Below, piece after piece: positions 7,001 through 55,496 of a DNA stretch of 64,000 nucleotides (its first letter is position 1; each line of letters begins with the position of its first letter). Below the pieces are notes generated by a model. It was not told where the DNA came from. It did not search any database and saw nothing but the letters and a program-made list of their open reading frames with translations. Made by a program: the position numbers and the translations under genes. The DNA is from an uncultured Clostridia bacterium (GTDB lineage: Bacteria > Bacillota > Clostridia > TANB77 > CAG-508), in assembly GCA_947589015.1 (NCBI GenBank), contig CANPZF010000005.1:4341-68340 (forward strand), in the 5' to 3' direction.

Positions 7001-10000
7001 TAACTTGGCTATTTATTTTAGTTACTTTTCCTAAATCTGCATTTTCTAAAAGAAGTCTTGCTGTTTGTAATTCATCTAATAATGCTTGTTTATCTGGATG
7101 GTAATCTCTTTCTCCTGCACTTCCACCTATTTTTTCAATACCCGCATTTAACTCTGATTCTAATGCTGATATCTTATCTTCAACTTTTTTCTTAGCATCT
7201 GCTGTGCTTATATCATCAGCTAGTTCTAAATGCATTGCATCTTTAAATAATGCATTTATTCTTCCTTCTACATCATCATATTCATAGAATCCCATTTCTG
7301 CAATTGTTATATCTCTATTTCCTGTGCTTGCATTTCCTATTGAAACAACTATTCTATCTGTATAAATTGGTTGTTGTAGTTTTACAGCTGTATATTTATT
7401 TCCTTCAGCATCTTTTTTTGTAACAACTTGTGATGCATCCACTCTAACTTGTTTACCTTTATTAGCAGAACCTTCTCTACAATCATTATACCAAACTCTA
7501 GCATAACCAAAGTCACCATTCCATTGTACTTTTGCTAATGTTATATAATTCATTTCATAAGCTTTATCAAACTCTACTATTACACCTTTGTCTGGACCCA
7601 TGTAGAATCCACCGAAATCCCAGTCATCTACTTGTAAATATGAGCCAAAACTATTATCTGCTACACCTTTTGCTGAACCTACTATAACTTGTCCATCTTT
7701 AGTATCTAATGGGCTATCTTTCATATTTCTGTTATCTGCTTTGACAAAAGTTATATTTTTAATATGGGCTGATAATACACCTGCTCCATTAGATGTATTT
7801 ATTCTCTTATATGTTGGTAATTCAACTTCTTGTACAGCTAATGTACTTGCTGTAGCTGTTTGTGAAGGATCACTTATACCTAAACTGTTACATGCAAAAA
7901 CTCTTATTGAGTATTCTGTTGCTTCACTTGCTAATCCTGTAATTGTATAAGTTGTTTCTTTTATTCCTATTGTTTCATCTCTTTTTGTTACTGGATTATA
8001 TTTAACTTCTACTTGTGTTGCTCTCTTAAATTCTTCATTACTATTTGTTGGTTTATATTCTACTATATAACTTGTAGCTCTTGGGTCTGCATTCCATGAA
8101 ACTTTTATTTGTTGATATCCACCTTTTAGTGTTACTCCAGTAGGTGCATTTGGTTTGCTTGTTGGCATTGGTTTTACTGGATATTCTTCACTATATTGAC
8201 TATACCAATCTCCATTAACAGAACGTACACTTACATTATATACTGTATAATCATTATTTGGATCCTGATCTAATAAGTCTTTTATTGATTTGCCGTTAAA
8301 TTGTTCTATTTTTATTTCATGTCCATCTACATCAAATAATTCGCTTACTTTTCCCTTTCCTTTGAAGTTAGCTGTTACTAATACTTGATATCCTGTTACA
8401 TTTACTACATTGTTCCATTTTACCATAAAACTTTCTTCTGTTATAGATGCGTCTATATCAGCTTTTCTAAGTTCTGGTATACTTAATTCTGGTTCTGGGA
8501 TTTTATCTTCCATACCATTTAAAAATTCTACTTTTGATATATCTGCCAATTTGTTACTTGTTGTTCCTGTAACATTTATTATTACTCTTTTTACAGCTAT
8601 AGCATTTCCAAAGTCAACTACAATTGTTCCATCTTTTTCAATCTTGGCTGTTCCTCCAGATATTGGTTCGTAATTTATCTTTGTTGATTGTGTACTATCA
8701 TTAATTACAGTTTGTTGCTCTGCTACTTTATATATTGATTTTATTGATGCTGTTTCTTTTTCTGTTTCTCCTATTTTACATTCAATTTCTACATCTTTTC
8801 CTGTTTCATTATTATGTCCATCTACTATTATAGTTCCTTCTGTTATATTGTTATTTATATTTGAAGATGGTGCTATGCTTAATAATTGTGTTTCTGCTGT
8901 ATCTTCTTCTATATCTATTGCAATACTTATTGGGTTTGTATCTGATATATCTTCATTTTTTGCTGGTTTTAAAGTTACATGTTTATCATTGTTTTCAAGT
9001 ATATCATCTATAGTTCCTGAACTAGTTGAATCTACTGCTCCTGTTTGAGCTTTTGTTTCAACTTTAGTTGTATCTATATTTGTTAGAAATCTTGCTGATG
9101 CACCAATAAATGAATGTCCCTTATTTAATGCTGCATAAGATATATCAGCAATATCTACTACTCCATCTTTATTTAAGTCATATGTATAATCATATATATT
9201 ATGATTAGGTTCTGTATTTCTCTTTCCTTCAATATTATTTACTATATCTGTCACATCATCTAATGTAATATTTCCGTCTTTATTAACATCACCTATTCCA
9301 ATAACTCCTGTTCTTCCTTTTTTAGTTGTTTGTTCCCCTTCTGGACCTAACATTGAATTTCCATTGCTATCTACTATTCCTAATGCATCATAACCATTAG
9401 TTAAATGTAATTCAGAAGTTGTATTTCCCTTTATTTCTACATTTGCTTGGGTAAACGTCTGATATCCCTTTCCTGATATAGTTAATGTGTACATACCTGC
9501 TGGCAATTCATTAAATGTATAGAAAAGTTGTTTTTCTTTTTCTATTCCATTTGCTTTTGTTGGTGCTCCTTCGTCATATAGTCCACTTTTCTTTAAAGTA
9601 ACTGTTAGATCATTTGCTGACATATTTTTTTGAGGGAGTCTTAAATCTATACTAAGATTAAGTTTCCCCTTTAATTTTGATGTGTCAAGTTCTTGTGTTT
9701 CAGGTTCGCTTTCACCTTCACCATTGTCGTTGTCTTCATCTTTGCCATTGTTTTCACCCGCATTTACTTCAGTTGGTTGGTTGTTGTCTATTGTACTTGT
9801 CACACCTCTTACTTTTGCCTGTTCTTCTGATGCTGATTTTTTTGTTGCTTCATCTTTTTTCTCTTCTGATGTATTGTTTTCAGTTCCTAAAGTGTTTTGT
9901 TTTTCTTGATTTGTTTCTTCTTCAGGTTCTGCTTCTTTTTTTGGCTCTTCTGTTTTCTCTGAATTGTCTTTTGATGAAGCACTTTCTTCGTTAGTAATCT

Positions 10001-10094
10001 CATTTATTACTGATTCTGCTAATACTGCTGTATTTCCACCAAGTAGCGTAATTATAATGAACATTACAAGTACGAATTTCAATGTTTTTTTCAT
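4002..10094 (-). CDS. Giant secreted multidomain M60-like/enhancin-type zinc metallopeptidase (putative mucinase) with an internal type-I dockerin, FN3 and carbohydrate-binding-like modules.
   Basis: The HEXXH...E motif reads GWGIAHEIGHVINQQAYVHGEVTNNYF, preceded by MYAGGLHIG. The dockerin calcium-binding pair is DVNKDGNITLDD and DLNKDGVVDIAD. The signal peptide is MKKTLKFVLVMFIIITLLGGNTAVLA. The RBS GGGAGGA is 7 nt before the ATG at 10094; the ORF track starts 11 codons earlier. There is no LPXTG. Confidence 0.8.
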   Translation of the reverse strand: MKKTLKFVLVMFIIITLLGGNTAVLAESVINEITNEESASSKDNSEKTEEPKKEAEPEEETNQEKQNTLGTENNTSEEKKDEATKKSASEEQAKVRGVTSTIDNNQPTEVNAGENNGKDEDNDNGEGESEPETQELDTSKLKGKLNLSIDLRLPQKNMSANDLTVTLKKSGLYDEGAPTKANGIEKEKQLFYTFNELPAGMYTLTISGKGYQTFTQANVEIKGNTTSELHLTNGYDALGIVDSNGNSMLGPEGEQTTKKGRTGVIGIGDVNKDGNITLDDVTDIVNNIEGKRNTEPNHNIYDYTYDLNKDGVVDIADISYAALNKGHSFIGASARFLTNIDTTKVETKAQTGAVDSTSSGTIDDILENNDKHVTLKPAKNEDISDTNPISIAIDIEEDTAETQLLSIAPSSNINNNITEGTIIVDGHNNETGKDVEIECKIGETEKETASIKSIYKVAEQQTVINDSTQSTKINYEPISGGTAKIEKDGTIVVDFGNAIAVKRVIINVTGTTSNKLADISKVEFLNGMEDKIPEPELSIPELRKADIDASITEESFMVKWNNVVNVTGYQVLVTANFKGKGKVSELFDVDGHEIKIEQFNGKSIKDLLDQDPNNDYTVYNVSVRSVNGDWYSQYSEEYPVKPMPTSKPNAPTGVTLKGGYQQIKVSWNADPRATSYIVEYKPTNSNEEFKRATQVEVKYNPVTKRDETIGIKETTYTITGLASEATEYSIRVFACNSLGISDPSQTATASTLAVQEVELPTYKRINTSNGAGVLSAHIKNITFVKADNRNMKDSPLDTKDGQVIVGSAKGVADNSFGSYLQVDDWDFGGFYMGPDKGVIVEFDKAYEMNYITLAKVQWNGDFGYARVWYNDCREGSANKGKQVRVDASQVVTKKDAEGNKYTAVKLQQPIYTDRIVVSIGNASTGNRDITIAEMGFYEYDDVEGRINALFKDAMHLELADDISTADAKKKVEDKISALESELNAGIEKIGGSAGERDYHPDKQALLDELQTARLLLENADLGKVTKINSQVTSWYDSHIEFRGSLNGFQPLGVAARAVPGEEITIYVGNPYKNVGESTRLQLIATQWRAEAGNFQQTVIQNLQVGINKVTIPEMISTSREKGGSLYINYTGLKDDDPFRYIDRNYAVRVSGGIEIPVLDLSSKEDPATGNRVAMTESEKKAAVLAYVTELDKVVNSLETRHNGDECKAFKGADEEGISDCLLGLTEIVLDPMMYSVSSKQIYDGLTEKIGGKPTLQQRADALYDSLTAMDQMMDLFYSQKGLVKQGASQDTNTYGSNNTYPRTRQNIRCMRMTGRAFMYAGGLHIGIQWNEVKDLAKGVPMKVDSNGKETADSQGNYFGWGIAHEIGHVINQQAYVHGEVTNNYFSILAQTDNTRNTVRFNYKDVYDKVTSGKTGKAQNVFTQLGLYWQLHLAYDTDGYNYKKYTTQKDQFNNSIYARMDTYARNIDSKTRIVSKAPTPTHDNKVALKIDSDSDNNLMRLACAATKKNVLEFFKKWGMIPNEDTIKYAEQWDEEEKAIWYVNDESRNYILEGNYPLYALENINLQASITNAQNNRVSENKVNFSLNITGEGIDPNGVLGYEIIRSYRSNDQVISRPIAFVEPTRNADGTVNANVTYTDTIDTINNRVFTYTVVAYDKFLYEIARKELDEVKVSHLGEISQKGWEVTTNMTSDSDTTAKYTDKNKNNTVETSDFEQTVSAVPTIADGDLETAFSGKVKEGKAEITISLPEVKKLVGLKYSGKKFDYYEIQVSSDGNNWTTVKKVEKPGVIKRTFSAIGNFFANMISSEEEITKPEVIEFAQIIDGKETIYNYDYDCSYVKLIIDDTQVNISEIDLLGQTGDNVEFNETGSIGKLASEFTYDESKDYSIPAGSIIFTGTYKGNPAYNVAKLWYQDATTGEWKMLNGYQIILAPDPGEANLGETSDGKWVYVVEQKELGLDGNYVMENGEQKDNEDYKRIEEALGKGKVRVELYRVDNALTNEGERLVSDTLITTLPSSLQDITLTNINNSSK

Positions 10095-10217
10095 GTTTTC
10101 ATCCTCCCTTTTTTTCATATTTAACAAAACATCTTTATTATACCATTTATCATAAATTTTAACAATATTTTTCTATTTTTTAATCTAAAAAAGGTTACTG
10201 GATAAAAATAGAAATCC

Positions 10218-18851: not shown

Positions 18852-20330
18852 TTATTCCTCTAGTTTAACCGACTCTTTATTAAAAAATTTTGTTGTGCCT
18901 TTGTTTACCCAAAAAGTTTCATCTTTTGTTATATCAGCTCCACAAAGTAAAGATGGTTTTTTAGTCAAAGGCTTTAGTACAGCATTTTTTACATCTTTGT
19001 TTTCATATATTTTGTATCTATCTACAATTTCGCTGTAATATTGTTTGGCATCTCCTGAGGTTAAATGGTTATATGCAACATAACTTAAAGTGCTTTTAAG
19101 TTCATTGTTAACTTTTACACTTGCAATCATTAAAATTCCTACAGTCAATATGTAAGCAAAAAAATTATTATTGATATTTTCTAAAATTTTTGAATCTCCA
19201 TATTTACTTTTTATCCATCCAATATAATAAAACATATTACTAATAACAAATAAAAAGTATGAATAATAGAATATATCTACTGTTCTTCCGCCACCTATAT
19301 TGTTCATTGCATAAAATGGTGGAACTATTTGTGAAGCGAAAATTCCAAAAGTTATAACTGTAAATAAAATAGGATATTTGAAAGTATATTTAGCATTTAC
19401 TATAAGTTTGTATATTGGCGGTATTAAAATTATAAACATTAATAAAGTAGGTAAATTAGTCCACCTTATAAAATATACCATAGAAGTCTTAATTGCAGTT
19501 AATATAGATTCTATTGCACCAATTCTTTGAGCGTAATTCGATTGCCTAATAGCATTTCCAGGAGCTAATATACTGATTATAAGTGCAATAAGACATACTA
19601 CAGTTATAACTAACATATTCCATTTCTTATTGTTCTTTTTTACAAGACAATAAATGGTAAGCAACGTCAAAATAATAATAAAAGATAAAGCTGTGCAGTA
19701 ATTTCCAGCACCTATTATTAAAGCCAAAATTACTATTATTATATTGTTTATAATTGTTGCTTTTCTTGATTCACTCTTTATAAGTTGTATTATTATCCCT
19801 AAAGCAATCAAAGCAAGTGAATAGAAGAATGTATAATATATTGCACCATTCCACCAAAATAAAGTTTCTCTGGGATTAGGAACAAATTCAATCGCAAACA
19901 TCGTTGGTAGTAAAGATAAAATTATAACTGTACTTTTTTTTGTATATCCAAATATTTTTTGTGATATGGTTTTTACTAGATATATATTTGAGCTAATAAG
20001 AAATGTTAATAGAATAGTTGTTGTTATCCAGTAGCAATTTAGTCCAAAAATACTTGGTTGTAATGCAAATAAAAATATTGCAGCAAATGTTCCTTGCCAA
20101 GTAAAATAGTATGTAACTATGGTTTCTACAACAGCATTCAATAAAGAAAAGATGTTATGTGTGTTGTTCCATGTTTGATATGTTAAATAACCATAGCTAT
20201 AGTCATCTGCGGAAGGTACATTATATTTAGAAACTATTAATATCGGTATCAATAACGCCAAAGAAACTATAACTATTAAAATTATAGTTATAACTTCTTG
20301 ATTCTTCATTAATTTACTAAAAATAGTCAT
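18852..20330 (-). CDS. Polytopic membrane protein of unknown function (roughly 12 TM), the last gene of the main capsule transcription unit.
   Basis: 492 aa, highly hydrophobic with a C-terminal soluble tail. No motif recognised by eye. Confidence 0.5.
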   Translation of the reverse strand: MTIFSKLMKNQEVITIILIVIVSLALLIPILIVSKYNVPSADDYSYGYLTYQTWNNTHNIFSLLNAVVETIVTYYFTWQGTFAAIFLFALQPSIFGLNCYWITTTILLTFLISSNIYLVKTISQKIFGYTKKSTVIILSLLPTMFAIEFVPNPRETLFWWNGAIYYTFFYSLALIALGIIIQLIKSESRKATIINNIIIVILALIIGAGNYCTALSFIIILTLLTIYCLVKKNNKKWNMLVITVVCLIALIISILAPGNAIRQSNYAQRIGAIESILTAIKTSMVYFIRWTNLPTLLMFIILIPPIYKLIVNAKYTFKYPILFTVITFGIFASQIVPPFYAMNNIGGGRTVDIFYYSYFLFVISNMFYYIGWIKSKYGDSKILENINNNFFAYILTVGILMIASVKVNNELKSTLSYVAYNHLTSGDAKQYYSEIVDRYKIYENKDVKNAVLKPLTKKPSLLCGADITKDETFWVNKGTTKFFNKESVKLEE

Positions 20331-20422
20331 TCGAAATTTCTCCTTATTATATATACAAAAAACTTCAAAAAGTGCAATAAATTAGCACTTATCTAAGTTA
20401 CTATTAATATCTAGTATTCTTA

Positions 20423-21445
20423 TTATTGTAATAAATTATTGAAATCTTTTCCCGTTATTTTAGTATAATCTGCTTTAAATCTTTTATATTCACTATTCCA
20501 TGAATCGTATTGGGTATCATTTCTATGGTCTGGTAAATTATAGTGTTCTTTTAAATATTTAGAAAAATATCTTGTATATTTTGTTGCTCCCCATACATTT
20601 AGATGTGCATAGTTATAAAAATCTTTATCAAAATCAACTTCAAAATCATCTAATGTATTAAAATTAAATACTTCATAACCATTTGCTTGTATAATATCTG
20701 TTGCAGTATTTATATATTCCATACCGTTATTTATATAACTTCTTTTAGGAACTACAAATAATACATTTAATTGGTTTGATTTTATATAATCAATTAAATC
20801 TTCTAATACTTCCTTATTTTCTTGCTTTAGCTCTATTCTTTTATTACTATCCCATTCATATGTTTCTTGTGGTTCTATTCCAACAGTTAATTTATAAAAT
20901 AGGTATCCTTTATATAAAGTTCTATTTCCAATTATATTTATACTACCAATATTTTTCCATTTGTTATGATATAATAAAAAGCTAAAGTAATAATTTATGT
21001 AGTCTTCTTTTTTTACATCTGTATATTTCAACATACCTTGAATTGCATCTATTCTATTTTTTGAATTTTTTAGAGAATCAATAACTTTTCTTTCCTGTCC
21101 ATCTTGTATATTTCCTAGATTATCACCTACCTTAGCTAGATCTATTATGTATAACTTAGGGTTTTGATATTTTTTTGACTCTTCTAACAAATATTTGACT
21201 GCTGACAAAGGCTGTGAATCAGTAGCTAACACACCTGTTGTAAACCCATACAAATTATACGCTAAAGTAGTATTGAAATGAGCATAACTGTTACTTCCAC
21301 CTATATTTATAATATCTAGTGTATTTTGGGGCTCACCATAGAAACAACCTATGGATGTTTGATCTAACCATAACACCTTAAAAACAATAATACATAAAAT
21401 GCAAAATATAATTAAAAATATTATACTTTTTATAATCTTTTTCAT
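20423..21445 (-). CDS. DltD/AlgJ-like (SGNH-type) single-pass membrane-anchored protein.
   Basis: N-terminal TM. An IGGSNSYAHFNTTLA-like motif follows the anchor (as in DltD). It sits immediately downstream of the MBOAT gene. Confidence 0.6.
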   Translation of the reverse strand: MKKIIKSIIFLIIFCILCIIVFKVLWLDQTSIGCFYGEPQNTLDIINIGGSNSYAHFNTTLAYNLYGFTTGVLATDSQPLSAVKYLLEESKKYQNPKLYIIDLAKVGDNLGNIQDGQERKVIDSLKNSKNRIDAIQGMLKYTDVKKEDYINYYFSFLLYHNKWKNIGSINIIGNRTLYKGYLFYKLTVGIEPQETYEWDSNKRIELKQENKEVLEDLIDYIKSNQLNVLFVVPKRSYINNGMEYINTATDIIQANGYEVFNFNTLDDFEVDFDKDFYNYAHLNVWGATKYTRYFSKYLKEHYNLPDHRNDTQYDSWNSEYKRFKADYTKITGKDFNNLLQ

Positions 21446-21457
21446 TCTCTCACCTCT

Positions 21458-23005
21458 TTAAAACTGTCTATATATAAAATTAGCTGGATTATATCCGGCA
21501 CCATAGCAACCAAATATTATAATCATAAATATTAATACATATAATACAGTCCATCTAAAAACAATATTTTGCTTAAATAACTTTTTTCTTACATTTCCTT
21601 TTAATGCTAGTTTTTCAACTATAAACAATATAAATATTGCCCCTGATAATACAATAAAGTCTTTTACATCTAATCCTATATTATTTAACAAATTACTCAA
21701 GTTACTTCTTCCTAGCAATGCTCCTATATTATTTAACATAAAACAACTTTTTATTGCATTGATAGCACCGCTTACACTTGGTGCTCTAAAAAATATCATT
21801 GAAAATGAAAATAATAGATATGTTCTTATTGTTTTATATAGTCTGTAACTAAAAACTTCTGTATTTATACCTAATTTATTGTTTATTCTCTTTGAAATTG
21901 GTTCTAAAACATCTTCTAAAAATATAAATAGAAACTGTAATAGCCCTGAACCAATTATATATGTATATGCCCCTCCATGCCATACTCCAATTGCAAACCA
22001 CATAATAAGCATAGAAATGTATAATGGTATTTTTTTGCCTACTTTTTTTCCAAATATTTTTTTACATTTTTTATTTAACTTTTGCATTATATCTGACTTT
22101 TGTAACGGATAAAAAATATAGTCTCTTAACCATGCACCTAATGTAATATGCCAATTTCTCCAAAATTCCGTCATTGTACTAGAAGCAAATGGTACTGTGA
22201 AGTTTTCTGGTAACCTAATACCCATAAATTCCGATATTCCCATAATAATATCTATTGAACCAGAAAAGTTTGTATATAATTGTAAAGGGAAAAATAGTAC
22301 AGCAGCTATTGTAAAAAATGCCCTATATGCATTTAAGTCAGCCCAAACTGTATCTACGAACATCCCAATTCTCTGCGAAATAACTAGTATTTTAAAAAGT
22401 CCCCATAAAATTCTAACCAATCCGCTACACATAAATTCATAACTAAATTTGTGTTCTCCGTATAGTTCTCCTTTTGTATCTTCATATCTAATGAATGGTC
22501 CTGATGATAGAATAGGGAAATATGACATAAACAAAGCACATTTAAATATATTCTTTTGTGCCTCCGTCACTCCCCTAAATATGTCTACAAGATATCCTAT
22601 CATAATTAGAGAATAGTAGCTTATACCAATTAATGAATTTCTTTGTACAAATTTAAATTGATAGTCTATATTAAATAAATTACATATATGGTTAGCTGTA
22701 GATAAAAATAGATTAGTATATTTTAAATAGACTAATTGTGTCAAAATCAAAAATATTCCTAATATTAAAAATGCTTTTGATTTTTTTGAATTTTCTTTAT
22801 ATTTATCTATTAATCTTCCACAAAAGTAAGAAGATAACAAAATAATTAATGCTTGTACAACTGTTTCTAAGTTTAAATTATCATAAAATAAAAATATAAT
22901 ACTTGATATCAGTAGTACAATCCACTGTATTTTTTTCGGAACAATAAAATATATTGCTACTGTTATTATACTAAATAAAGCAAAAACCAAAGATGTTAAT
23001 GCCAT
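21458..23005 (-). CDS. MBOAT family membrane-bound O-acyltransferase (DltB/AlgI-like).
   Basis: Polytopic. MBOAT signatures RNWHITLGAWLRDYIFYPL and VWHGGAYTYI. Confidence 0.8.
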   Translation of the reverse strand: MALTSLVFALFSIITVAIYFIVPKKIQWIVLLISSIIFLFYDNLNLETVVQALIILLSSYFCGRLIDKYKENSKKSKAFLILGIFLILTQLVYLKYTNLFLSTANHICNLFNIDYQFKFVQRNSLIGISYYSLIMIGYLVDIFRGVTEAQKNIFKCALFMSYFPILSSGPFIRYEDTKGELYGEHKFSYEFMCSGLVRILWGLFKILVISQRIGMFVDTVWADLNAYRAFFTIAAVLFFPLQLYTNFSGSIDIIMGISEFMGIRLPENFTVPFASSTMTEFWRNWHITLGAWLRDYIFYPLQKSDIMQKLNKKCKKIFGKKVGKKIPLYISMLIMWFAIGVWHGGAYTYIIGSGLLQFLFIFLEDVLEPISKRINNKLGINTEVFSYRLYKTIRTYLLFSFSMIFFRAPSVSGAINAIKSCFMLNNIGALLGRSNLSNLLNNIGLDVKDFIVLSGAIFILFIVEKLALKGNVRKKLFKQNIVFRWTVLYVLIFMIIIFGCYGAGYNPANFIYRQF

Positions 23006-23026
23006 AATTATTTCCTCCTTCTTTTA

Positions 23027-23761
23027 TTACATAATATTTCCATTTGTTATTGCAATATTTTGTCCAGTAATACTATTAGATTTTTCTGATAGTAAAAATT
23101 CAAACATTGGAATTACATCATCTATAGTTAAGTTACTACCTGTTGGACTGTTCATAGCATTTTGTTTTACAATGAGTTCTGGTATTGTTTGTAAAAATTT
23201 TGTTTCTATCATAGTTGGTGAAATCCCATTAATTTTTATTCCTTTATTAGCATACTCATTTGCAAGTGATTTCACTAATCCTAATAGTGCATATTTTGAA
23301 GTTACATAACTTGCTAAATATTTAGGAGGAATATTTATTGTGTATGAAGTCAACATAACAATTATTTTTCCATATTTATTCTTAGTCATAATTGGTAAAA
23401 AATTATTTAAAATAATAACTAACGAACGAAGTGCTATATCTAAATCGCTTTGAAATTTATTCCATGTTAATTTAGAAAATTTTAAATTTTCAATTTTTCC
23501 TGCTGGCAAATGCACAATATGAGTTGGAATTTTGCCAGTTTTCTTAATGTTTTCTACAAAATCATAAGTAGCACTTTCATCTTTAAAATTACCTTCTATT
23601 AAAATTAATTTTTCTTCTAGTTCCTTTTTTAATTCTACTAGATTGCTTTTGTTTCCATTATAATGTGCAATAATAAAATCAAAATCTTTATTTACTTTAC
23701 TTATTAGACCTAATCCTATATCAGAAGATGCACCTGTTATTAATAATATTTTTTCACTCAT
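23027..23761 (-). CDS. Short-chain dehydrogenase/reductase (SDR).
   Basis: ITGASSDIGLGL Rossmann motif. The catalytic YxxxK is present as YVTSKYALLGLVK. Confidence 0.75.
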   Translation of the reverse strand: MSEKILLITGASSDIGLGLISKVNKDFDFIIAHYNGNKSNLVELKKELEEKLILIEGNFKDESATYDFVENIKKTGKIPTHIVHLPAGKIENLKFSKLTWNKFQSDLDIALRSLVIILNNFLPIMTKNKYGKIIVMLTSYTINIPPKYLASYVTSKYALLGLVKSLANEYANKGIKINGISPTMIETKFLQTIPELIVKQNAMNSPTGSNLTIDDVIPMFEFLLSEKSNSITGQNIAITNGNIM

Positions 23762-24278
23762 TTATAACTCCTACTTTCATTTTTCCTCTTACTACTTTTT
23801 GTTGTTTACTGTTTAAAATTTCAAATTTTATTGTAAATTGCTTAAAAGTTTCATTTATTTCTATTACTTTACCATTTATTGTTAGTGGATTGTCCGAAAG
23901 ATACACTGGTTTCTTAAACAAAATTTCCACACTGTGAATGAGGCTATATTTTCCAGGCAGGTATACTCCTGCTAAAGTTGATACAAATGATGAAGTAAGC
24001 ATCCCATAAACCACTTTCTGGTTATAGCCTTTAGATTTTGCATACTCCAAATCATTATGTAAAGGGTTAATATCTCCTGTTATTTCACAAAATGACCCTA
24101 GCATTTTATCAGTAATAGAAACTTGGAATTGTTCTTCCAATCCAATTTTTATATCTTCAAATTTATATTCTTTTAAAATATTTTTTCCATGCTGTCCGCT
24201 AGTTTTATAAGAACTTATCTGTGTGTGTGTGTGTGTGTGTACAGTATCAAGGCTTTTAGCCTTTTTGATTTTTTTCAT
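23754..24278 (-). CDS. MaoC-like/hotdog-fold dehydratase. Its 5' coding region contains a (GT)10 repeat.
   Basis: Hotdog motifs GDINPLHNDLEYAKSKGY and VVYGML. The repeat at 24221-24240 encodes the HTHTHTQ stretch of the N-terminal extension. Confidence 0.7.
   Translation of the reverse strand: MKKIKKAKSLDTVHTHTHTQISSYKTSGQHGKNILKEYKFEDIKIGLEEQFQVSITDKMLGSFCEITGDINPLHNDLEYAKSKGYNQKVVYGMLTSSFVSTLAGVYLPGKYSLIHSVEILFKKPVYLSDNPLTINGKVIEINETFKQFTIKFEILNSKQQKVVRGKMKVGVINE
24221..24240. repeat. Dinucleotide microsatellite (GT)10, equal to (AC)10 on the coding strand, inside the dehydratase gene.
   Basis: ctGTGTGTGTGTGTGTGTGTGTac. This is a conspicuous repeat in an AT-rich genome. Confidence 0.9.
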
Positions 24279-24298
24279 TTTTTCTCCACCTTATATAC

Positions 24299-24541
24299 TT
24301 AGTTCATTCTAGAGATAATAATATCTACCATTTCTCCAACATTTTTCATTGTTGTTACTTCATTCATATTAAATTTAATTCCAAATTCTTGCTCAACAGC
24401 AACAATCAAATTGATATGTTCTAAGCTGTCCCAATCTTCAATATCATTAGCTGTTGTCTCTGGTTTTACAACTATACCTTCATCATCAAATACATCTCTA
24501 AAAACATTGTTTAATCTTTCATAAATTTCTTCTTTTTCCAT
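24299..24541 (-). CDS. Acyl/peptidyl carrier protein (DltC/ACP-like).
   Basis: 80 aa. The phosphopantetheine attachment motif is DWDSLEHINL. Confidence 0.8.
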   Translation of the reverse strand: MEKEEIYERLNNVFRDVFDDEGIVVKPETTANDIEDWDSLEHINLIVAVEQEFGIKFNMNEVTTMKNVGEMVDIIISRMN

Positions 24542-26322
24542 TATTCTTTCACCTCTATTACATTATTTTTATTAGTATATACATTTGATATATCTAATTT
24601 ATATATTTTATTTCCTTGCTCGTCACAAGATATTTCTTGAAAACCTTGCAAGTCATAAAAATCAATAACCATTTTATTTTTTACCGTTGGATAATAGTAG
24701 CCATATATTGTTTTAATATTTCTTTCTTTTGCCTTTTTTACTAACATATCCATCATTGCAAATTCCATATTTCTTTTTAAAACTCTACAGCTCATTATCC
24801 ATAAATCTATATGTAATTCATCATTATTTTTTATATTTCCAATTACAACAGATATAACACCATTATCTCCAAATATATCTTCTAATTTTCCATATATTTT
24901 TATATAATTATCATCATTATAAACATCTTCAATATCTGCTAAAGAATATCTTTTTGTTGTTAAATTAAATTGATTACTTTTGTTGCTTAGTTGTGATATT
25001 CTTTCTAAGTAAATTGGTTTGAATGTTGATATTTCTGCTTTCATTTGTAATGATTTTAAATAATCTTCATAGTTATCAAATGACATCATCATTTGACTTC
25101 TTTTTGCATTGTCTTTATATAACTCGTTTTTCTTTAGATCTTCGTTCGAAAAGTTCGTAACTTCAAAATATCCATTATGGTCAATTATTCTAATATAATT
25201 TTCAGGTACATCTATTTCAGGTGTTGCAATTCCTTCAACATAGTTTTGTACTATTTTTCTTTCTGCTGGGTTATCATCTACAAATACAAAACTGTCCGCT
25301 CCTAAATTAAGTTCTTCTGCAATATCTTTAATATTTAAATTTTTAGGATTCCAATTTGCTTTTATTATAATAAAATCTTCTGGTTTTAATGTTCCAGCTG
25401 GATGGTTTAGCCCTGCTATCGCATTTTCATATTCATTTTTAGAATTTATATTTAATATTATTCCTAGACTTTTATGTTCTTTTATATAGCTTTGCATTTC
25501 AGAATAAACTTGTCCACTTGGAACTTCTGGCCCTATTTTTAGGTTTTCTACTCCATCGTCTCCAACAATTCCTCCCCATAATGTGTTGTCTAAATCTAAT
25601 ACAAATGCTTTTTTATTTTTTCCATAAATAGATTTTATAATATTTGCTAAATTAAATGATAAATATGGTATTGCTGGTACTTCCATAGCATATTTATACA
25701 TATGCCAATAAAATTGATTTGCCCATTTATCTAATCCATAACAAGAGGATATGTAGTTTATATCATTTATGAAAAAATTTTTGGTACTGTTTGCATAATC
25801 ATGAAATTTTTGATTTAGTCTTGTTATAAAGTTTATTCTTCCATGAATATCTACTGCATCTTTATTTCCTAATAAACGATAGTAAGGATATTCAAAGTTA
25901 TTTTGTATTATTGTGCAATTAAATCTTTCACTTAAGCTTTTCCATATTTTTTTGAATTTTTCATACTCACTATTTAGCATATTTTCAATGTTTTTTTCAT
26001 CATCATACATTGTAGGATGTTGCATTATATTTCTATTTGTAGTATGTATGTATATAATATCTGGATTAAATTTATCTAATTCTTCATTTCCAAATATAGC
26101 ATCTTCATAATACTGATTATATTCAGATTCATAAAAAGTAGGTTTTATTCCATAGTTTAATAAGAATATTTCTAACATATTTTTTATTTCGCTAGTTGTA
26201 GAACCACCCAGTATTGCTATATTTTTTTCTATAAAATTATCATTTTGTAATAATTGTCTTTTTATTTTCTTTTTATTCTTCATTAAATATGTTACATCAA
26301 ATGGATATTCTAATTCTTTCAT
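24541..26322 (-). CDS. FkbH-like HAD-IIIC domain protein with a C-terminal acyltransferase-like (GNAT-like) region.
   Basis: FVLDLDNTLWGGIVGDDG matches the HAD-IIIC/FkbH motif; FVFVDDNPAERKIV matches motif III. Confidence 0.7.
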   Translation of the reverse strand: MKELEYPFDVTYLMKNKKKIKRQLLQNDNFIEKNIAILGGSTTSEIKNMLEIFLLNYGIKPTFYESEYNQYYEDAIFGNEELDKFNPDIIYIHTTNRNIMQHPTMYDDEKNIENMLNSEYEKFKKIWKSLSERFNCTIIQNNFEYPYYRLLGNKDAVDIHGRINFITRLNQKFHDYANSTKNFFINDINYISSCYGLDKWANQFYWHMYKYAMEVPAIPYLSFNLANIIKSIYGKNKKAFVLDLDNTLWGGIVGDDGVENLKIGPEVPSGQVYSEMQSYIKEHKSLGIILNINSKNEYENAIAGLNHPAGTLKPEDFIIIKANWNPKNLNIKDIAEELNLGADSFVFVDDNPAERKIVQNYVEGIATPEIDVPENYIRIIDHNGYFEVTNFSNEDLKKNELYKDNAKRSQMMMSFDNYEDYLKSLQMKAEISTFKPIYLERISQLSNKSNQFNLTTKRYSLADIEDVYNDDNYIKIYGKLEDIFGDNGVISVVIGNIKNNDELHIDLWIMSCRVLKRNMEFAMMDMLVKKAKERNIKTIYGYYYPTVKNKMVIDFYDLQGFQEISCDEQGNKIYKLDISNVYTNKNNVIEVKE

Positions 26323-26467: not shown

Positions 26468-28288
26468 CTACTTTTTTTCGCTTTTTATGGCTTTTCTACT
26501 CCAACCATTACAACCAGAAATAACTCTTCCATTTGATTCTCCTGCAATTATAGAATTTTCTGGAAATTTTTTTGTTACAACTGTTTTTGCCGATACAATT
26601 GAATCTCGACCTATCGTTGCTCCCTTTAGTACTGTAACATTTGTAGTTAGCCAAACGTGGTCTCCTATATTTACTTCTTTTGGATAATTGGTACCTTTCA
26701 TATTTTTATCAAATACTTGATGAAAATCACTATCATAAATTATAGCATTTCTACTCATCATTACATCTTCACCAATATTAATTTTCCTTGCACATACTAT
26801 CACTGCTCCGCAATTTGCAGTAAAAAATTTTGTGTTTAAAATAGCATTATTGTGAATTTCAATATAGCTATTATAATTAATTTGAGCTCCATTATTTACA
26901 TACCATTTAGCATTCCCATGCATCTTTAGATACATTTCGGTTTTAGATTTTCTTAACTTACAAGCACAAAGTTCCAAGTTTCTCCCCTTTATATAAATCC
27001 TCGAGTGCTTACTTAACTCTAATACTGTTCCTTTATGTGGTATTAAATATACTCCTTTATGTCTTATAACGTTTTCACTAAAAAAGTTATATTTGATAAA
27101 CTTTATAATGTCTAAATGTAATACAAAATTAATTTTTTTTAATACAGAATTTGCTTTTCTAAAAACTTTTTTTATTAGAGTTTCTTTATCTTCCTCAATA
27201 CATGCCTCTACTGCTTTACTAAATTTTTCTGTTTCTAGCATTTTAAAAAATTTATCTCTATTTTTATGTTTTTCAAGCTTACTTATTGCAGCTGGATTTC
27301 CTTCTAACATCTCATCTAAATTTCTTTGTTGAAAAACTATATCTTCTTTTATGTTTTCAAATAAATCTTTTCCTTTTTTAGAATTAATCATAATACAAGA
27401 AATTCCTTTAAACATATCCTCAGACTTCATTCCATGAATTCCCCAAAAATCTCCAATGGTTATATCACTTATTCTTGGTAATTCTCTGTATTTGCAATCA
27501 TAACACGAATTTCTCATAAAAAGTCCTTTGCATCCAATGAAGCCCCTTACCCATGGTGAAGTATTTTTATCTTTATGATAGGTGTCTCCATTTTCAAACT
27601 CTACATATGATGCTATACTTTGCCAACCTGTTTTTTTGTTTTTTAAATGTACTAATTTGACTTTTGAATTATGCTCCTCTTCTAATTCTTCTATACGCTT
27701 TTTATATGCTAATGGTGAGTTTACACCTCTACATATAAAATCTATAATATATAAGTTTTCATATTGTTTATCTAAAAATGATTGCAAGGCTGCACTTTGG
27801 CAAGGTGTACCACAAAATAGTACCTTTTTATCTCCTTCTAATAAATCTTTAACTTGTCCATAAATTCCTTCTGCATTACTTTGGAAATATTTGCTTCCCA
27901 TAATTTTTTTCAAATCTTCAATTGTATTCCCAACACTGTGATGTGCTCCTTTATAGTCTTTATCATAAACAGAACCAACTATATATCCACCATTTTTTAT
28001 AAAATTTTGTGCTAAGATGTAATATATCCCACCTGATGTGCTTTGTATCCTAATTTCATCATCTTTAGCCCATGCAGCATAAACTTTGGGTACATCTTTT
28101 TTATATCTATTTTCTATAAGTCTTGGACATCTTTTTACACACAGTCCACATTTTATACATTTATCATAATCTACCTTTGGTACAGAAAATCCTTCTTTGT
28201 CAGATTCATAATAAATAGCATTTCTAGGACATATACCTGCACACATATTGCATCCCGTACACTTTTCTTTTACAATTTTGTCTATCAT
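26468..28288 (-). CDS. Fusion of an FrhB-like (coenzyme F420 hydrogenase beta-like) 2x[4Fe-4S] domain with a hexapeptide-repeat acetyltransferase.
   Basis: N-terminus CTGCNMCAGICP ... CIKCGLCVKRCP. C-terminal LbH repeats IGDHVWLTTNVTVLKGATIGRDSIV. Confidence 0.65.
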   Translation of the reverse strand: MIDKIVKEKCTGCNMCAGICPRNAIYYESDKEGFSVPKVDYDKCIKCGLCVKRCPRLIENRYKKDVPKVYAAWAKDDEIRIQSTSGGIYYILAQNFIKNGGYIVGSVYDKDYKGAHHSVGNTIEDLKKIMGSKYFQSNAEGIYGQVKDLLEGDKKVLFCGTPCQSAALQSFLDKQYENLYIIDFICRGVNSPLAYKKRIEELEEEHNSKVKLVHLKNKKTGWQSIASYVEFENGDTYHKDKNTSPWVRGFIGCKGLFMRNSCYDCKYRELPRISDITIGDFWGIHGMKSEDMFKGISCIMINSKKGKDLFENIKEDIVFQQRNLDEMLEGNPAAISKLEKHKNRDKFFKMLETEKFSKAVEACIEEDKETLIKKVFRKANSVLKKINFVLHLDIIKFIKYNFFSENVIRHKGVYLIPHKGTVLELSKHSRIYIKGRNLELCACKLRKSKTEMYLKMHGNAKWYVNNGAQINYNSYIEIHNNAILNTKFFTANCGAVIVCARKINIGEDVMMSRNAIIYDSDFHQVFDKNMKGTNYPKEVNIGDHVWLTTNVTVLKGATIGRDSIVSAKTVVTKKFPENSIIAGESNGRVISGCNGWSRKAIKSEKK

Positions 28289-31007: not shown

Positions 31008-32084
31008 CTAATTTTTTAATGCTTTTTCTATAAACTCATTTGCTTTTTTTCTTTCTTCTTCTAAAATCTTATAATTTTCAAAATAATTACATTCCAACAT
31101 ATTTTTATCTATTTTTCCTGAATATTTTCTATCTTGTAAATTAAATGTTTCAAGTAACGTATCAATTCTAGACATCATGTCACATGCTTCACCTTCTCTG
31201 TCAAATATAAAAAATGGTTTTTCGTATAAAATTGCAAAAATGCATGCATGGAAAGAATCTGTACATATAAGAAACGCATTTTTTTCTAAATACAAAAACT
31301 CGCTTGGTCCAGTTGTATAAAACTTTGATTTTTTGTCTAATAAGTTTATAATTTTGCAGTTATTCTCTTTCGCTACTCTCTTTATTTCCCTTTTTCTCTC
31401 GTTTGACAAATCCCCTAAAAAATATGTTAAGATATACTTGTCCGTATTTAATACTTTAGGTCTTTTAACTATTTTGTCCCATTCTTCTATAGTAATTAAC
31501 ATTGTAGGATCCAACAATGTCATAACATCTTTTCTTCCTGTTAATTCTTCAATTATTTTTTCTGCATTTTTCTCTCTTACAGATATACTTTTAAATTTTT
31601 TTATTTCTTTTATAAATATTTCTTGCTTTTCCTTTGGTATTTCTCTTGCACCAATACTTGCTGAAAAGGCTATTCTTTTTCTTCCTTCTGCAAAAGATAG
31701 CAAATCAATATTTGTTAATCTCCAATTTGGATTCCATATTTGATCACTTCCAGCAACAAAGTAATCATAGTCGTTATTTAAATTTTGTTTTATATTATCT
31801 GGTGTAATACAAAAGTCTGTTTTTTTGATATATCTATTTGTAAAATATTCAAAGTTTCTTCTTCTTTTATTAACTATCCTAGTTTCAAATACTATTCGAT
31901 ATAGTTTTTTTATTCCTCTTTGAAAAAAATTACTTATTTTTAAATTTCTTTTTTGTTTTATAGAATCATTGACTATTGTTTCTACATCTACATTTTGCTT
32001 TTTTAAGATTTGCTGTACTGCATAATTTTGAAGTCTATTTCCATAATTATTATTATCATAGCATGTTACTATCCCAACTTTCAT
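31008..32084 (-). CDS. Polysaccharide pyruvyl transferase (CsaB/WcaK family).
   Basis: MKVGIVTCYDNNNYGNRLQNYA N-terminus and the conserved GSDQIWN motif. Confidence 0.75.
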   Translation of the reverse strand: MKVGIVTCYDNNNYGNRLQNYAVQQILKKQNVDVETIVNDSIKQKRNLKISNFFQRGIKKLYRIVFETRIVNKRRRNFEYFTNRYIKKTDFCITPDNIKQNLNNDYDYFVAGSDQIWNPNWRLTNIDLLSFAEGRKRIAFSASIGAREIPKEKQEIFIKEIKKFKSISVREKNAEKIIEELTGRKDVMTLLDPTMLITIEEWDKIVKRPKVLNTDKYILTYFLGDLSNERKREIKRVAKENNCKIINLLDKKSKFYTTGPSEFLYLEKNAFLICTDSFHACIFAILYEKPFFIFDREGEACDMMSRIDTLLETFNLQDRKYSGKIDKNMLECNYFENYKILEEERKKANEFIEKALKN

Positions 32085-55358: not shown

Positions 55359-55496
55359 CCAAGGTTGCCGATGGTCGCCAAAGGTTGCCAAAGGGGACGT
55401 TCTTAAATGGCAACTTATAAGTTGCCATTTAAGAACGTCCCCTTTGGCAACCTTTGGCGACCCCTTGGGCAACTCCTTTGGCGACCTTAATTCAAT
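55359..55496. repeat. GC-rich composite palindrome: a 74-bp perfect palindrome (55381-55454) flanked by imperfect tandem copies of an 11-12-bp unit CCTTTGGC(A/G)ACC.
   Basis: 55381-55417 is the exact reverse complement of 55418-55454. The flanks are ccaaggttgccgatggtcgcc on the left and tggcgaccccttgggcaactcctttggcgacc on the right. GC is near 50% in a roughly 27% GC background. Confidence 0.9.

Follow-up and report, generated by a model that had tools for sequence, protein, structure and literature searches.

Six minus-strand genes at positions 20423-26322 of the DNA analysed here probably form a cassette that uses a carrier protein to O-acylate a cell-surface glycan, with a lactyl group supplied through FkbH, MaoC and SDR enzymes. 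The window (the whole stretch of 64,000 nucleotides) comes from an uncultured rabbit-gut bacterium, and the cassette lies inside a capsule gene cluster. The acceptor in the window is most likely the Wzy-dependent capsule of the surrounding locus. The product would be an O-lactyl ester here and an O-glyceryl ester from related cassettes containing only the core genes. In the literature that we searched, the combination of a carrier-fed C3 hydroxy acid, an MBOAT and a surface polymer is not described. The features discussed below are:

24541..26322, minus strand: FkbH-type loader, 593 aa, with FkbH_N, HAD-IIIC phosphatase and C-terminal acyl-transfer domains
24299..24541, minus strand: dedicated ACP, 80 aa, with the phosphopantetheine-site Ser39 in DSL
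23754..24278, minus strand: MaoC/hotdog (R)-hydratase/dehydratase, 174 aa (Pfam MaoC_dehydratas, 39.4 bits)
24220..24240, minus strand: (AC)10 dinucleotide tract, codons 13-20 of the MaoC gene, a candidate phase-variation switch
23027..23761, minus strand: classical FabG-like SDR, 244 aa (adh_short_C2, 113 bits)
21458..23005, minus strand: MBOAT, 515 aa; His286 (WRNWH) and His343 (WHG) are conserved
21461..21478, minus strand: codons for FIYRQF (MBOAT residues 510-515), an FxYxxF acyl-shuttle motif in which Tyr512 is predicted to carry the acyl group
20423..21445, minus strand: P6, 340 aa, a single-pass membrane protein whose N-terminal TM segment (residues 2-25) anchors an extracytoplasmic SGNH-fold domain

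Gene organization of the locus

An earlier note on this DNA had grouped seven consecutive minus-strand genes into one module. An ORF check of the window recovered all seven at exactly the same coordinates, and the calls for the FkbH, ACP, MaoC, SDR and MBOAT families were borne out with Pfam and NCBIfam profiles. The membership of the seventh gene was not. Its product, described as a 12-TM protein of unknown function, belongs to DUF6056 (PF19528, listed as GT_STM0557_N) and accompanied the module in none of 68 related loci; the module therefore consists of six genes rather than seven. The stop codon of FkbH and the start codon of ACP both use base 24541, 8 nt are common to the SDR start and the MaoC stop, and gaps of 12-93 nt separate the remaining genes. 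The capsule setting proposed for these genes is present, as are the pyruvyl transferase and acetyltransferase genes, the latter encoding a hexapeptide-type enzyme fused to an FrhB-like domain. Genes for Wzx, the pyruvyl transferase and the acetyltransferase flank the cassette on one side and genes for Wzz, CpsD and CpsB on the other, all on the same strand, and no terminator-like site was found on this strand.

The loader and its carrier protein

The FkbH protein scored 255 bits against TIGR01686 (cutoff 146.65) and also matched FkbH_N (Pfam) and HAD-IIIC; its residues 18-393 matched BF1531 (PDB 3slr, 1.7e-49). We aligned it with a set that included a Streptomyces FkbH from an FkbG/K/J/I-type methoxymalonyl operon, an FkbH from a zwittermicin cluster, and a long tetronate-type FkbH encoded beside FabH-like and ACP genes. 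The protein retains the catalytic residues of FkbH enzymes that load glyceryl units. These include Asp243/Asp245 in the HAD-IIIC motif DLDNT, Ser294/Asn296, Lys327 and Asp349/Asp350, as well as an invariant Ser511-Cys512-Arg513 in the C-terminal acyl-transfer domain, with Cys512 being the sole invariant cysteine. The HAD motifs, the invariant cysteine and the stand-alone ACP partner are shared with FkbH, OzmB, ZmaN and tetronate-type loaders, and the three-domain length with the long tetronate-type proteins. By contrast, the cassette FkbH is only 24-28% identical to the three aligned PKS/NRPS-linked proteins, has no downstream FkbK/I/G, FabH-like or PKS genes, and its acyl-ACP appears to be used by the MBOAT.

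The ACP scored 25.3 bits against PP-binding (cutoff 20.8). Generic ACP models in NCBIfam matched it, all below cutoff, and no DltC model was among these matches; its best PDB match was 2lml, a 'putative acyl carrier protein' (8e-20). Thus, the carrier is ACP-like and does not mirror DltC as had been suggested. Glyceryl-ACP is known to be made from 1,3-bisphosphoglycerate (PMC7489565). In the proposed pathway, FkbH would take this compound from glycolysis, its HAD domain would remove the 3-phosphate, and the glyceryl group would be held on Cys512 before moving to the phosphopantetheine arm on Ser39 of ACP.

The tailoring enzymes

The MaoC protein has a conserved domain from about residue 35 with the hydratase-2 motif GDINPLH at residues 68-74. 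Its top PDB matches were human 3-hydroxyacyl-thioester dehydratase 2, PhaJ and HadB. These relatives use 3-hydroxyacyl thioesters and glyceryl-ACP is such a thioester, which supports a role for MaoC in acting on glyceryl-ACP. The SDR contains TGASSDIG at residues 9-16, Ser139, Tyr152 and Lys156, and scored approximately 100 bits against 3-oxoacyl-ACP reductase models, under their equivalog cutoffs. We propose that MaoC would eliminate the 3-hydroxyl of glyceryl-S-ACP to give 2-hydroxyacryloyl-S-ACP, which would tautomerise to pyruvoyl-S-ACP, and that the SDR would reduce this to lactyl-S-ACP. The order and direction of these steps are suggested by the chemistry and by a non-homologous PKS precedent. 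Trans-AT PKS loading modules of the type DH*-KR*-FkbH-ACP (FR901464, bryostatin) make lactyl-ACP. The proposed route from glyceryl-ACP through pyruvoyl-ACP to lactyl-ACP by a dehydratase and a ketoreductase is the same, but the cassette encodes a stand-alone, single-hotdog MaoC and a stand-alone FabG-like SDR rather than DH and KR domains, and the acyl group it makes would go onto a glycan instead of starting a polyketide chain. The family and motif calls thus fit the earlier proposal that the two enzymes take glyceryl-ACP towards lactyl-ACP; the product itself we infer.

The MBOAT and P6

The MBOAT only barely passed the Pfam threshold (28.5 versus 27). Its best NCBIfam match was DltB, at 131.7 bits against an equivalog cutoff of 375, and its top PDB match was DltB 6bug (1e-16). 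Hydropathy revealed two added C-terminal TM-like segments, at residues 443-470 and 479-508, ahead of FIYRQF. An FxYxxF motif ends 69 of the 74 MBOAT ORFs in related loci, among them the Sinorhizobium meliloti protein with FLYQGF. The tyrosine of this motif is an acyl shuttle in DltX and PatA and hands the acyl group on to the SGNH partner (PMC12148441). No DltX occurs with the cassette. The earlier view that this MBOAT mirrors DltB is therefore replaced by one of a PatA/AlgI-like architecture with two added TM segments and a fused motif. Because the MBOAT ends in a PatA/AlgI-type FIYRQF and DltX is missing, we read the system from its sequences as a hybrid of a Dlt-style carrier-protein donor and a PatA-style MBOAT–SGNH machine. 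The MBOAT, using His343, would move the acyl group from ACP at the cytoplasmic face to its own Tyr512 at the outer face. P6 would then take it, probably on Ser51, and esterify a sugar hydroxyl of the polymer.

A confident AF2 model indicates that P6 carries an SGNH fold, with Ser51 after strand 1 as the candidate nucleophile and an invariant His281 before the last long helix. P6 had zero matches in Pfam and NCBIfam and so fits no DltD model, and a P6 profile found nothing among PDB sequences; DltD was, however, among its fold matches. The P6 domain occurs elsewhere fused behind an AT3 domain, in the slot of the SGNH domain in OatA-type transferases. By contrast with OatA/OafA-type AT3-SGNH proteins, P6 of the window is encoded on its own and has an MBOAT as its partner. 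Of the earlier description as an SGNH/DltD-like protein, the fold stands; the protein is not DltD and belongs to a separate, large SGNH-like family.

The resemblance to the Dlt system (DltA, DltC, DltB, DltX, DltD) lies in an operon that pairs a dedicated carrier with an MBOAT, whose closest solved relative is DltB, and a single-pass SGNH-fold protein. It extends to the predicted sequence of events, in which the carrier is loaded in the cytoplasm, the acyl group crosses through the MBOAT and an acyl-Tyr, and an SGNH transferase acts last (PMC12148441). The loader is an FkbH/HAD enzyme whereas that of Dlt is the adenylating DltA, and the acyl group would be a hydroxy acid rather than an amino acid (D-alanine). 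PatA/PatB, AlgI/AlgJ/AlgX and WssH/WssI likewise combine an MBOAT carrying a fused C-terminal FxYxxF with a separate extracytoplasmic SGNH-type partner. They use acetyl-CoA and no carrier, whereas the cassette operon keeps an ACP and a loader, and its partner is P6 rather than a DHHW/AlgX or PatB-type protein. Some of the related loci also contain a second, shorter MBOAT with a DHHW/AlgX protein. The coexistence of such canonical pairs with the cassette argues that the ACP-linked MBOAT and P6 are a distinct system and not a generic acetylation pair.

Conservation of the cassette

We counted genes in the 68 related loci, each with at least 5 kb downstream. Adjacent FkbH and ACP genes are present in all 68, an MBOAT in 64 and P6 in 60, and these form the conserved core. 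In 64 of the 68, no more than 8 kb separates the MBOAT from FkbH, and the MBOAT mostly comes directly after ACP or the tailoring genes. MaoC (29 loci) and SDR (30 loci) mostly co-occur, usually adjacent and with overlapping stop and start codons; both are present in about 27 loci and one alone is detectable in 5. They are thus optional, not fixed parts of the module as first described. A VOC/glyoxalase-family gene occurs in 28 loci, and more than half of the cassettes have this gene or nothing where MaoC and SDR would be. MaoC with SDR and the VOC-family gene are alternative optional tailoring genes. Cassettes lacking MaoC and SDR would install glyceryl, and those with the VOC-family gene may install epimerised glyceryl.

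The core also occurs in Lachnospiraceae, Hungatella, Butyrivibrio and Ruminococcus (FkbH identity 54-63%). The pSymB replicon of S. meliloti carries, in this order, MBOAT, a gene for an unknown protein of 409 aa, ACP and FkbH, adjoining rkpR and ABC-transporter capsule-export genes. The gene set is thus kept across genomes. Ketosynthase and FabH genes were each found in none of the 68 loci, PKS/NRPS families were absent from the 25 commonest Pfam families of 234 neighbouring ORFs scanned, and the neighbours are glycan or housekeeping genes. With its catalytic residues kept, its gene set conserved and no PKS context, the central claim of the earlier note, a self-contained, carrier-dependent, Dlt-like acylation module with FkbH in the place of DltA, stands in all the computational checks suggested there.

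Alternative explanations

The acyl group in the window might be another C3 unit on the same pathway: glyceryl, with MaoC and SDR acting elsewhere, pyruvoyl, or for example a 3-oxidised glyceryl if the SDR works as a dehydrogenase. The optional nature of both genes, the SDR scores, which stay below cutoff for the many models of reductases and dehydrogenases that it matches, and an (AC)9 variant without full-length MaoC (see below) are consistent with this. We nevertheless consider it somewhat unlikely given how much more often MaoC and SDR occur together than singly, and given that MaoC enzymes canonically beta-eliminate 3-hydroxyacyl thioesters. Free 2-oxoacyl thioesters are also reactive, and reduction to lactyl has a precedent in FkbH loading modules, which are listed as forming D-lactate-ACP in PKS systems (PMC7901079). 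Quite unlikely is a chance neighbourhood in which the MBOAT and P6 are an acetyl-CoA O-acetylation pair and FkbH-ACP-MaoC-SDR feeds a different, cytoplasmic acceptor, such as an N-acylated amino sugar (compare Campylobacter flagellin, whose glycans carry glyceroyl groups). According to PMC12148441 (2025), MBOAT/SGNH pathways other than Dlt draw on acyl-CoA and have no carrier protein, so the cassette MBOAT could use acyl-CoA too. FkbH-ACP(-MaoC-SDR) genes lack an MBOAT and P6 at L089 and L086, and the flagellar glycosylation locus of C. jejuni contains the FkbH-domain gene cj1302. FkbH-ACP pairs with no detectable MBOAT occur on plasmids of C. perfringens and on one replicon of Subdoligranulum, so the acyl-ACP generator can serve other acceptors. 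Against chance stand the proximity of the MBOAT to FkbH in nearly all loci, its recurrence in S. meliloti, and the separate MBOAT-DHHW/AlgX pair of loci needing acetylation. In core-only cassettes (e.g., L067 and L059), moreover, the MBOAT is the sole acyltransferase available to unload ACP.

Where the acyl group ends up is a further point. The acceptor could be another envelope polymer, teichoic-acid-like or a lipid-anchored glycopolymer, with the cassette being a dlt analogue that landed in a capsule locus. At least 24 related loci have a divergent acpS upstream of FkbH, which also speaks for the ACP-dependent pathway itself, and at L090 the cassette adjoins acpS among the housekeeping genes rpsP, uppS, cdsA and rseP with no polysaccharide genes nearby. 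Polysaccharide genes are a minority of neighbours in 8 sampled rabbit-gut loci, and numerous related cassettes sit outside recognisable polysaccharide loci. With so many relatives beside acpS and housekeeping genes, the acceptor is not necessarily capsule. In the window, however, the cassette lies between Wzx-side and Wzz/CpsD/CpsB genes on one strand, and glycosyltransferases and sugar-nucleotide enzymes dominate the neighbours in seven distant loci; we regard another polymer as unlikely here and capsule as the favoured acceptor, as the earlier note had it. FkbH, ACP, a dehydratase and a reductase are also classic PKS-associated functions, and FkbH relatives on plasmids of Streptomyces and Bacillus sit in PKS/NRPS clusters. 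A small-molecule pathway, polyketide or tetronate-like, is nonetheless highly improbable, with no ketosynthase or FabH-like hit in the 68 loci, no PKS/NRPS family among the commonest of the neighbouring ORFs scanned, and an MBOAT and a SGNH-fold protein outside the cytoplasm as the conserved partners.

A repeat tract in the MaoC gene

Apart from the (AC)10 tract, the window has no perfect dinucleotide array. L001, the same locus from a different sample, has (AC)9, leading to a truncated MaoC product of 23 aa. This difference of one repeat unit suggests that the tract is a phase-variation switch of MaoC. The (AC)9 variant lacks full-length MaoC, so its system must at a minimum accept the transfer of glyceryl. 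The related loci contain 18 such tracts at the 5' ends of genes, all on the coding strand.

The cassette and its capsule locus

The seven open reading frames that an earlier note had joined in one Dlt-like module were recovered, to the base, on the minus strand. Dlt here denotes teichoic-acid D-alanylation. Profile searches with each protein upheld six of the seven assignments; the exception is a 340-aa membrane-anchored protein that we call P6.

Genes of the module as described in the earlier note
24541-26322, minus: FkbH protein; TIGR01686, FkbH_N and HAD-IIIC
24299-24541, minus: ACP, 80 aa; PP-binding, DSL with Ser39
23754-24278, minus: MaoC hotdog protein; GDINPLH
23027-23761, minus: classical SDR; Ser139, Tyr152, Lys156
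21458-23005, minus: MBOAT; Pfam MBOAT, WRNWH and WHG motifs
20423-21445, minus: P6, 340 aa; no match in Pfam or NCBIfam
18852-20330, minus: DUF6056 protein; PF19528, shown as GT_STM0557_N

The genes are tightly packed: base 24541 is common to the stop of FkbH and the start of the ACP gene, the MaoC and SDR genes have 8 nt in common, and 12-93 nt separate the other neighbours. A terminator scan showed no terminator-like site on the coding strand of the gene set, and the promoter and terminator scan counts were at or below shuffled expectation in this AT-rich DNA (about 26% G+C).

The flanks form a complete Wzy-dependent capsule locus with every gene on the same strand as the module. The order is LCP, VanZ, CapD, the initiating transferase, three GT1 enzymes, Wzy, GT2, a pyruvyl transferase, Wzx, an epimerase-like protein and an FrhB-like/hexapeptide-acetyltransferase fusion, then the module, and past it Wzz, the CpsD kinase, the CpsB phosphatase and GlmM. 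The fusion gene (26468-28288) encodes one 606-aa protein that combines a 2x[4Fe-4S]/FrhB-FdhB-like domain with a WbbJ/WcaF-like hexapeptide O-acetyltransferase; it is near the pyruvyl transferase gene (31008-32084), with the Wzx and epimerase-like genes between them.

Conservation of a four-gene core

Relatives of the window's FkbH protein number more than 8,000. Two ENA assemblies contain an identical copy of the locus, and a scan of one genome per species gave 80 loci, mostly in rabbit-gut MAGs labelled Clostridia or Bacilli. Further FkbH loci at 54-63% identity occur in Lachnospiraceae, Hungatella, Butyrivibrio, Ruminococcus and Acetatifactor. Synteny was counted by tblastn of the window proteins against 68 loci whose sequence continues for 5 kb or more downstream of FkbH. 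ACP was present in all 68, MBOAT in 64 and P6 in 60, so the set of FkbH, ACP, MBOAT and P6 is kept across genomes. MaoC was found in 29 of these loci, SDR in 30 and a 127-aa VOC/Glyoxalase_4 protein in 28; eight complete cassettes contained neither MaoC and SDR nor VOC. From these counts, the module is best described as a four-gene core (FkbH, ACP, MBOAT, P6) with alternative optional tailoring sets, MaoC and SDR as in the window or VOC. The DUF6056 gene, the seventh in the earlier description, was found by tblastn in none of the 68 loci and is excluded from the module. Because PF19528 is displayed as GT_STM0557_N in the gene table, its product is probably a membrane glycosyltransferase that adds a side-branch sugar outside the cytoplasm.

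The earlier note had raised the possibility that such gene sets usually sit in polyketide clusters. This context is ruled out: tblastn found neither ketosynthase nor FabH-like proteins in any of the 68 loci, and no PKS/NRPS family was among the 25 commonest Pfam families in a census of seven distant loci or in one of eight rabbit-gut loci. The seven distant loci (107 ORFs) were dominated by glycosyltransferases, sugar-nucleotide enzymes and Acyl_transf_3, and the rabbit-gut loci had mixed surroundings. Many cassettes lie outside recognisable polysaccharide loci. In one fully annotated locus, L090, the cassette is located among the housekeeping genes rpsP, uppS, cdsA and rseP, not capsule genes. 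In this locus (9605-9952) and in at least 24 others (e.g. L027 9615-9917), acpS, the gene for holo-ACP synthase, is the divergent neighbour immediately upstream of FkbH; these acpS-flanked loci belong to the MAG group labelled 'Bacilli'. The cassette is thus self-contained and portable: some copies, that of the window included, are inside capsule loci, and others stand alone like dlt.

Other gene combinations occur in the related loci. Where P6 is missing, a DHHW/AlgX-type partner adjoins the MBOAT gene, and in several loci the ACP-linked MBOAT-P6 pair is accompanied by another MBOAT, shorter and about 29% identical, with a DHHW/AlgX protein. The MBOAT-P6 and MBOAT-DHHW/AlgX pairs are two distinct systems. 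FkbH and ACP are also found without MBOAT, on C. perfringens plasmids and a Subdoligranulum replicon. In the latter, no recognisable acceptor transferase was found after the FkbH-ACP-MaoC-SDR genes. It seems that FkbH and ACP, as a generator of acyl-ACP, are reused with other acceptor enzymes.

Other gene combinations in related loci
L007 3794-7698: second MBOAT with DHHW/AlgX-type proteins
L008 4646-7434: second MBOAT with DHHW/AlgX-type proteins
L009 14981-17707: second MBOAT (465-493 aa across these three loci, ending FIYFRF or FIYFNF) with DHHW/AlgX-type proteins
L086 1558-5769, C. perfringens plasmid: nucleotidyltransferase, VOC, ACP, FkbH, unknown 328-aa protein
L089 9001-12418, Subdoligranulum replicon: FkbH, ACP, MaoC, SDR, then an unknown ORF

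On pSymB of S. meliloti (L085 6681-11716), genes for an MBOAT, a 409-aa protein, an ACP and a 628-aa full-length FkbH homologue (31% identity) lie beside rkpR and capsule export genes, and S. meliloti is a tractable organism for the pathway. The 409-aa protein (annotated 'TonB-dependent receptor') had no Pfam match and showed no similarity to P6, with an hhalign probability of 0.7% against the P6 profile.

The loader, the carrier protein and the tailoring enzymes

The FkbH protein scored 255 bits against TIGR01686 (cutoff 146.65), covering model positions 3-320 of 323, and 60.6 bits against HAD-IIIC (cutoff 35.75). We aligned it with three references: a Streptomyces FkbH of the methoxymalonyl type, from an operon with genes for an FkbM-type methyltransferase, a 3-hydroxyacyl-CoA dehydrogenase, an ACP and an acyl-CoA dehydrogenase; the FkbH of an NRPS/PKS cluster on a B. 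thuringiensis plasmid, which we take to be of the zwittermicin type; and a long tetronate-type FkbH adjoining FabH-like and ACP genes. The window protein has the three-domain length of the tetronate-type form. The HAD residues Asp243 and Asp245 (DxDxT), Ser294, Asn296, Lys327, Asp349 and Asp350 are invariant with all three references, as is Ser511-Cys512-Arg513 (SCR) of the C-terminal acyl-transfer domain, where Cys512 is the sole invariant cysteine across the alignment. With these HAD residues and Cys512 kept, there is therefore none of the loss of catalytic residues that the earlier note had named as grounds for giving up its reading. The window loader is an FkbH-family protein and is predicted to load a glyceryl unit from 1,3-bisphosphoglycerate onto the ACP.

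The carrier protein matched PP-binding with 25.3 bits (threshold 20.8) and has DSL at residues 38-40. Its 13 matches in NCBIfam were all ACP models, with no DltC among them, and none of its 46 PDB matches was a D-alanyl carrier protein by name. The MaoC protein (39.4 bits, threshold 27) contains the hydratase-2 motif GDINPLH at residues 68-74, and its best PDB relatives are HTD2, PhaJ and HadB. The SDR scored 113 bits against adh_short_C2 and has the catalytic residues Ser139, Tyr152 and Lys156; its Rossmann motif, TGASSDIG, carries Asp in place of the middle Gly of the TGxxxGxG type.

An MBOAT with a fused acyl-shuttle motif

The MBOAT protein scored 28.5 bits against the Pfam family (threshold 27). 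Its WRNWH (His286) and WHG (His343) motifs align with the His motifs of DltB, which is its best solved relative (1e-16). It is about 100 residues longer than DltB, with two extra TM-like segments and the end FIYRQF (residues 510-515). The pattern FxYxxF forms the C-terminal end in 69 of 74 related MBOAT ORFs, and the S. meliloti MBOAT ends in FLYQGF. This hexapeptide has been shown to be an acyl shuttle (PMC12148441, J Biol Chem 2025): the MBOAT acylates its Tyr, and the acyl group then passes to the SGNH partner. In Dlt the hexapeptide is on the microprotein DltX, and in PatA-type MBOATs it is C-terminally fused through two additional TM helices (PMC12148441).

That this protein is DltB is ruled out, since it scored 131.7 bits against the DltB equivalog TIGR04091 (cutoff 375), carries the shuttle motif as a fusion and has no DltX. 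The fused shuttle is that of the PatA type, one of the O-acetylation MBOATs, and an acyl-CoA donor could be considered on this account; the conservation of a carrier protein (68 of 68 related loci, with MBOAT in 64) and a loader argues against acyl-CoA as the donor. The window system is a hybrid of the Dlt and PatA types: the shuttle is fused and no DltX-like small ORF was found in the module, yet the system has a dedicated ACP and loader.

P6, an SGNH-fold protein of a large family

P6 had no match in Pfam or NCBIfam at E up to 0.01. A word-indexed search gave 180 homologues, none with a Pfam domain. With a profile built from 43 homologues, nothing was found among PDB sequences at E up to 10, and 7,762 cluster representatives were found at E up to 0.001 among 1.84 billion proteins. 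The AF2 model (pLDDT 93.9, pTM 0.91) has an alpha/beta domain behind a single N-terminal TM helix, and this extracytoplasmic domain matched the SGNH fold. Ser51 (at least 90% conserved) comes after strand 1 and the invariant His281 before the last long helix. These positions fit SGNH blocks I and V and make Ser51 and His281 candidate catalytic residues, but Asn278 stands three residues ahead of the His, where Asp would be expected. In other family members an Acyl_transf_3 domain is directly followed by the fused P6 domain, which is then in the slot that the SGNH domain holds in OatA-type enzymes. These features describe an extracytoplasmic protein with an SGNH fold, one of a large unnamed family and DltD-like in fold and topology. 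Membership of the DltD family is ruled out on sequence, and DltD is retained solely as an SGNH-fold relative.

Tandem P6 paralogues, up to five per cassette and 45-54% identical to the window P6, occur in L025 (12027-19965), L005 (13974-17975) and L044 (12067-17095). These may give several acceptor-site specificities.

AC repeat tracts at gene starts

Across the 64-kb window just one perfect dinucleotide array exists, an (AC)10 tract at 24220-24240. It occupies MaoC codons 13-20, upstream of the conserved domain, which begins near residue 35. In L002 (12083-12102) the tract is likewise (AC)10. A contig from another sample that is otherwise identical (L001, 12083-12100) has (AC)9, and there the MaoC ORF ends after 23 codons to give a 23-aa product. 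Tracts of at least seven AC units numbered 18, in 12 of the 89 fetched loci; all are on the coding strand and lie between about 170 nt ahead of a gene start and about 40 nt past it. Five belong to MaoC, three to P6, three to FkbH and one to a second MBOAT, and the remainder to neighbouring genes. In L011 and L020, (AC)n tracts mark the start of at least three P6 genes.

The tracts have the look of phase variation by repeats, in which acyl identity and acceptor specificity would vary. The change in length comes from a single contig pair, and it is possible that the difference between (AC)10 and (AC)9 is an assembly error.

Proposed pathway

The following route is inferred throughout, from substrate and product to acceptor and to the donor that the MBOAT uses. 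FkbH would divert 1,3-bisphosphoglycerate to glyceryl-S-ACP. MaoC could then remove the 3-hydroxyl to give pyruvoyl-S-ACP, a step proposed because its closest solved relatives, HTD2, PhaJ and HadB, dehydrate 3-hydroxyacyl thioesters, and SDR could reduce the product to lactyl-S-ACP. The MBOAT would move the acyl group onto its own Tyr512, and P6 would esterify the polymer with it. Core-only cassettes would deliver glyceryl. Since Glyoxalase_4 is the family of methylmalonyl-CoA epimerase, we speculate that VOC cassettes might epimerise glyceryl. The strongest argument for a hand-off from ACP to MBOAT is that core-only cassettes contain no other protein that could unload the ACP.

The proposed MaoC and SDR route has a chemical parallel in FkbH-containing PKS loading modules, and the DH*-KR* details of lactate loading are known from FR901464 and bryostatin. 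Such loading modules are listed as yielding D-lactate-ACP (PMC7901079).

Relation to known systems and significance

The cassette resembles Dlt in its donor logic, PatAB/AlgIJ in its membrane machinery and the glycerate or lactate loaders of PKSs in its first steps. By family membership its proteins are FkbH, ACP, an MBOAT with fused shuttle, an SGNH-fold protein, MaoC and SDR; none is DltB, DltC or DltD. Of the Dlt parallel drawn in the earlier note, the proposed carrier-protein donor logic thus stands, and the one-to-one correspondence falls: by sequence the MBOAT is not DltB, the carrier is not DltC and P6 is not DltD. Full-text searches, which covered few subscription journals, found no paper tying FkbH or HAD-IIIC to an MBOAT in glycan modification. 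FkbH and MBOAT appear together in the literature on aeruginosins, as enzymes acting on different moieties, and the sole glycan-related mention of FkbH found was the FkbH-domain gene cj1302 in the flagellar glycosylation locus of C. jejuni.

MBOAT-SGNH systems decorate peptidoglycan, teichoic acids, alginate and cellulose, and such decorations control how bacteria resist lysozyme and cationic peptides, how phages adsorb and how the immune system recognises the cell. To our knowledge, Dlt is the one carrier-protein system in the current picture and all others use acetyl-CoA. It is conceivable, and we put it forward tentatively as somewhat less than probable, that in the cassette a second and widespread class of MBOAT-SGNH envelope acylation dependent on carrier proteins has its first example. 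Such a class would join Dlt-like donor logic to the fused shuttle of PatA/AlgI, be fed from glycolysis by FkbH and place C3 hydroxy-acyl (glyceryl, lactyl) esters on surface glycans. Dinucleotide-repeat phase variation would switch acyl identity (MaoC ON/OFF), and arrays of P6 paralogues, some with repeats at their starts, would switch the acceptor site.

If this is true, the use of carrier-protein donors would extend beyond Dlt and be wider than is currently assumed, and non-acetyl hydroxy-acyl esters would be exportable by the MBOAT-SGNH route. It would also provide a genetic handle on the placement of glycerate and lactate esters on polysaccharides, and the P6 family (about 7,800 sequence clusters, no Pfam model) would gain a function. 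Hydroxy-acyl esters are predicted on gut-commensal and rhizobial glycans, and the AC tracts suggest that gut commensals vary their surface decorations stochastically. The hypothesis is directly testable with four or five purified proteins.

Other features of the window

Two further repeats were observed. A G+C-rich 24-nt tandem repeat, CCCCTTGGGCAACCCTTTGGCGA, is present in two copies in an intergenic gap at 55439-55486, where the DNA is otherwise 26% G+C, and a 15/30-nt coding repeat lies at 3109-3270 inside an ORF at 2871-3908. The window also contains an ORF of 2041 aa at 4002-10127.
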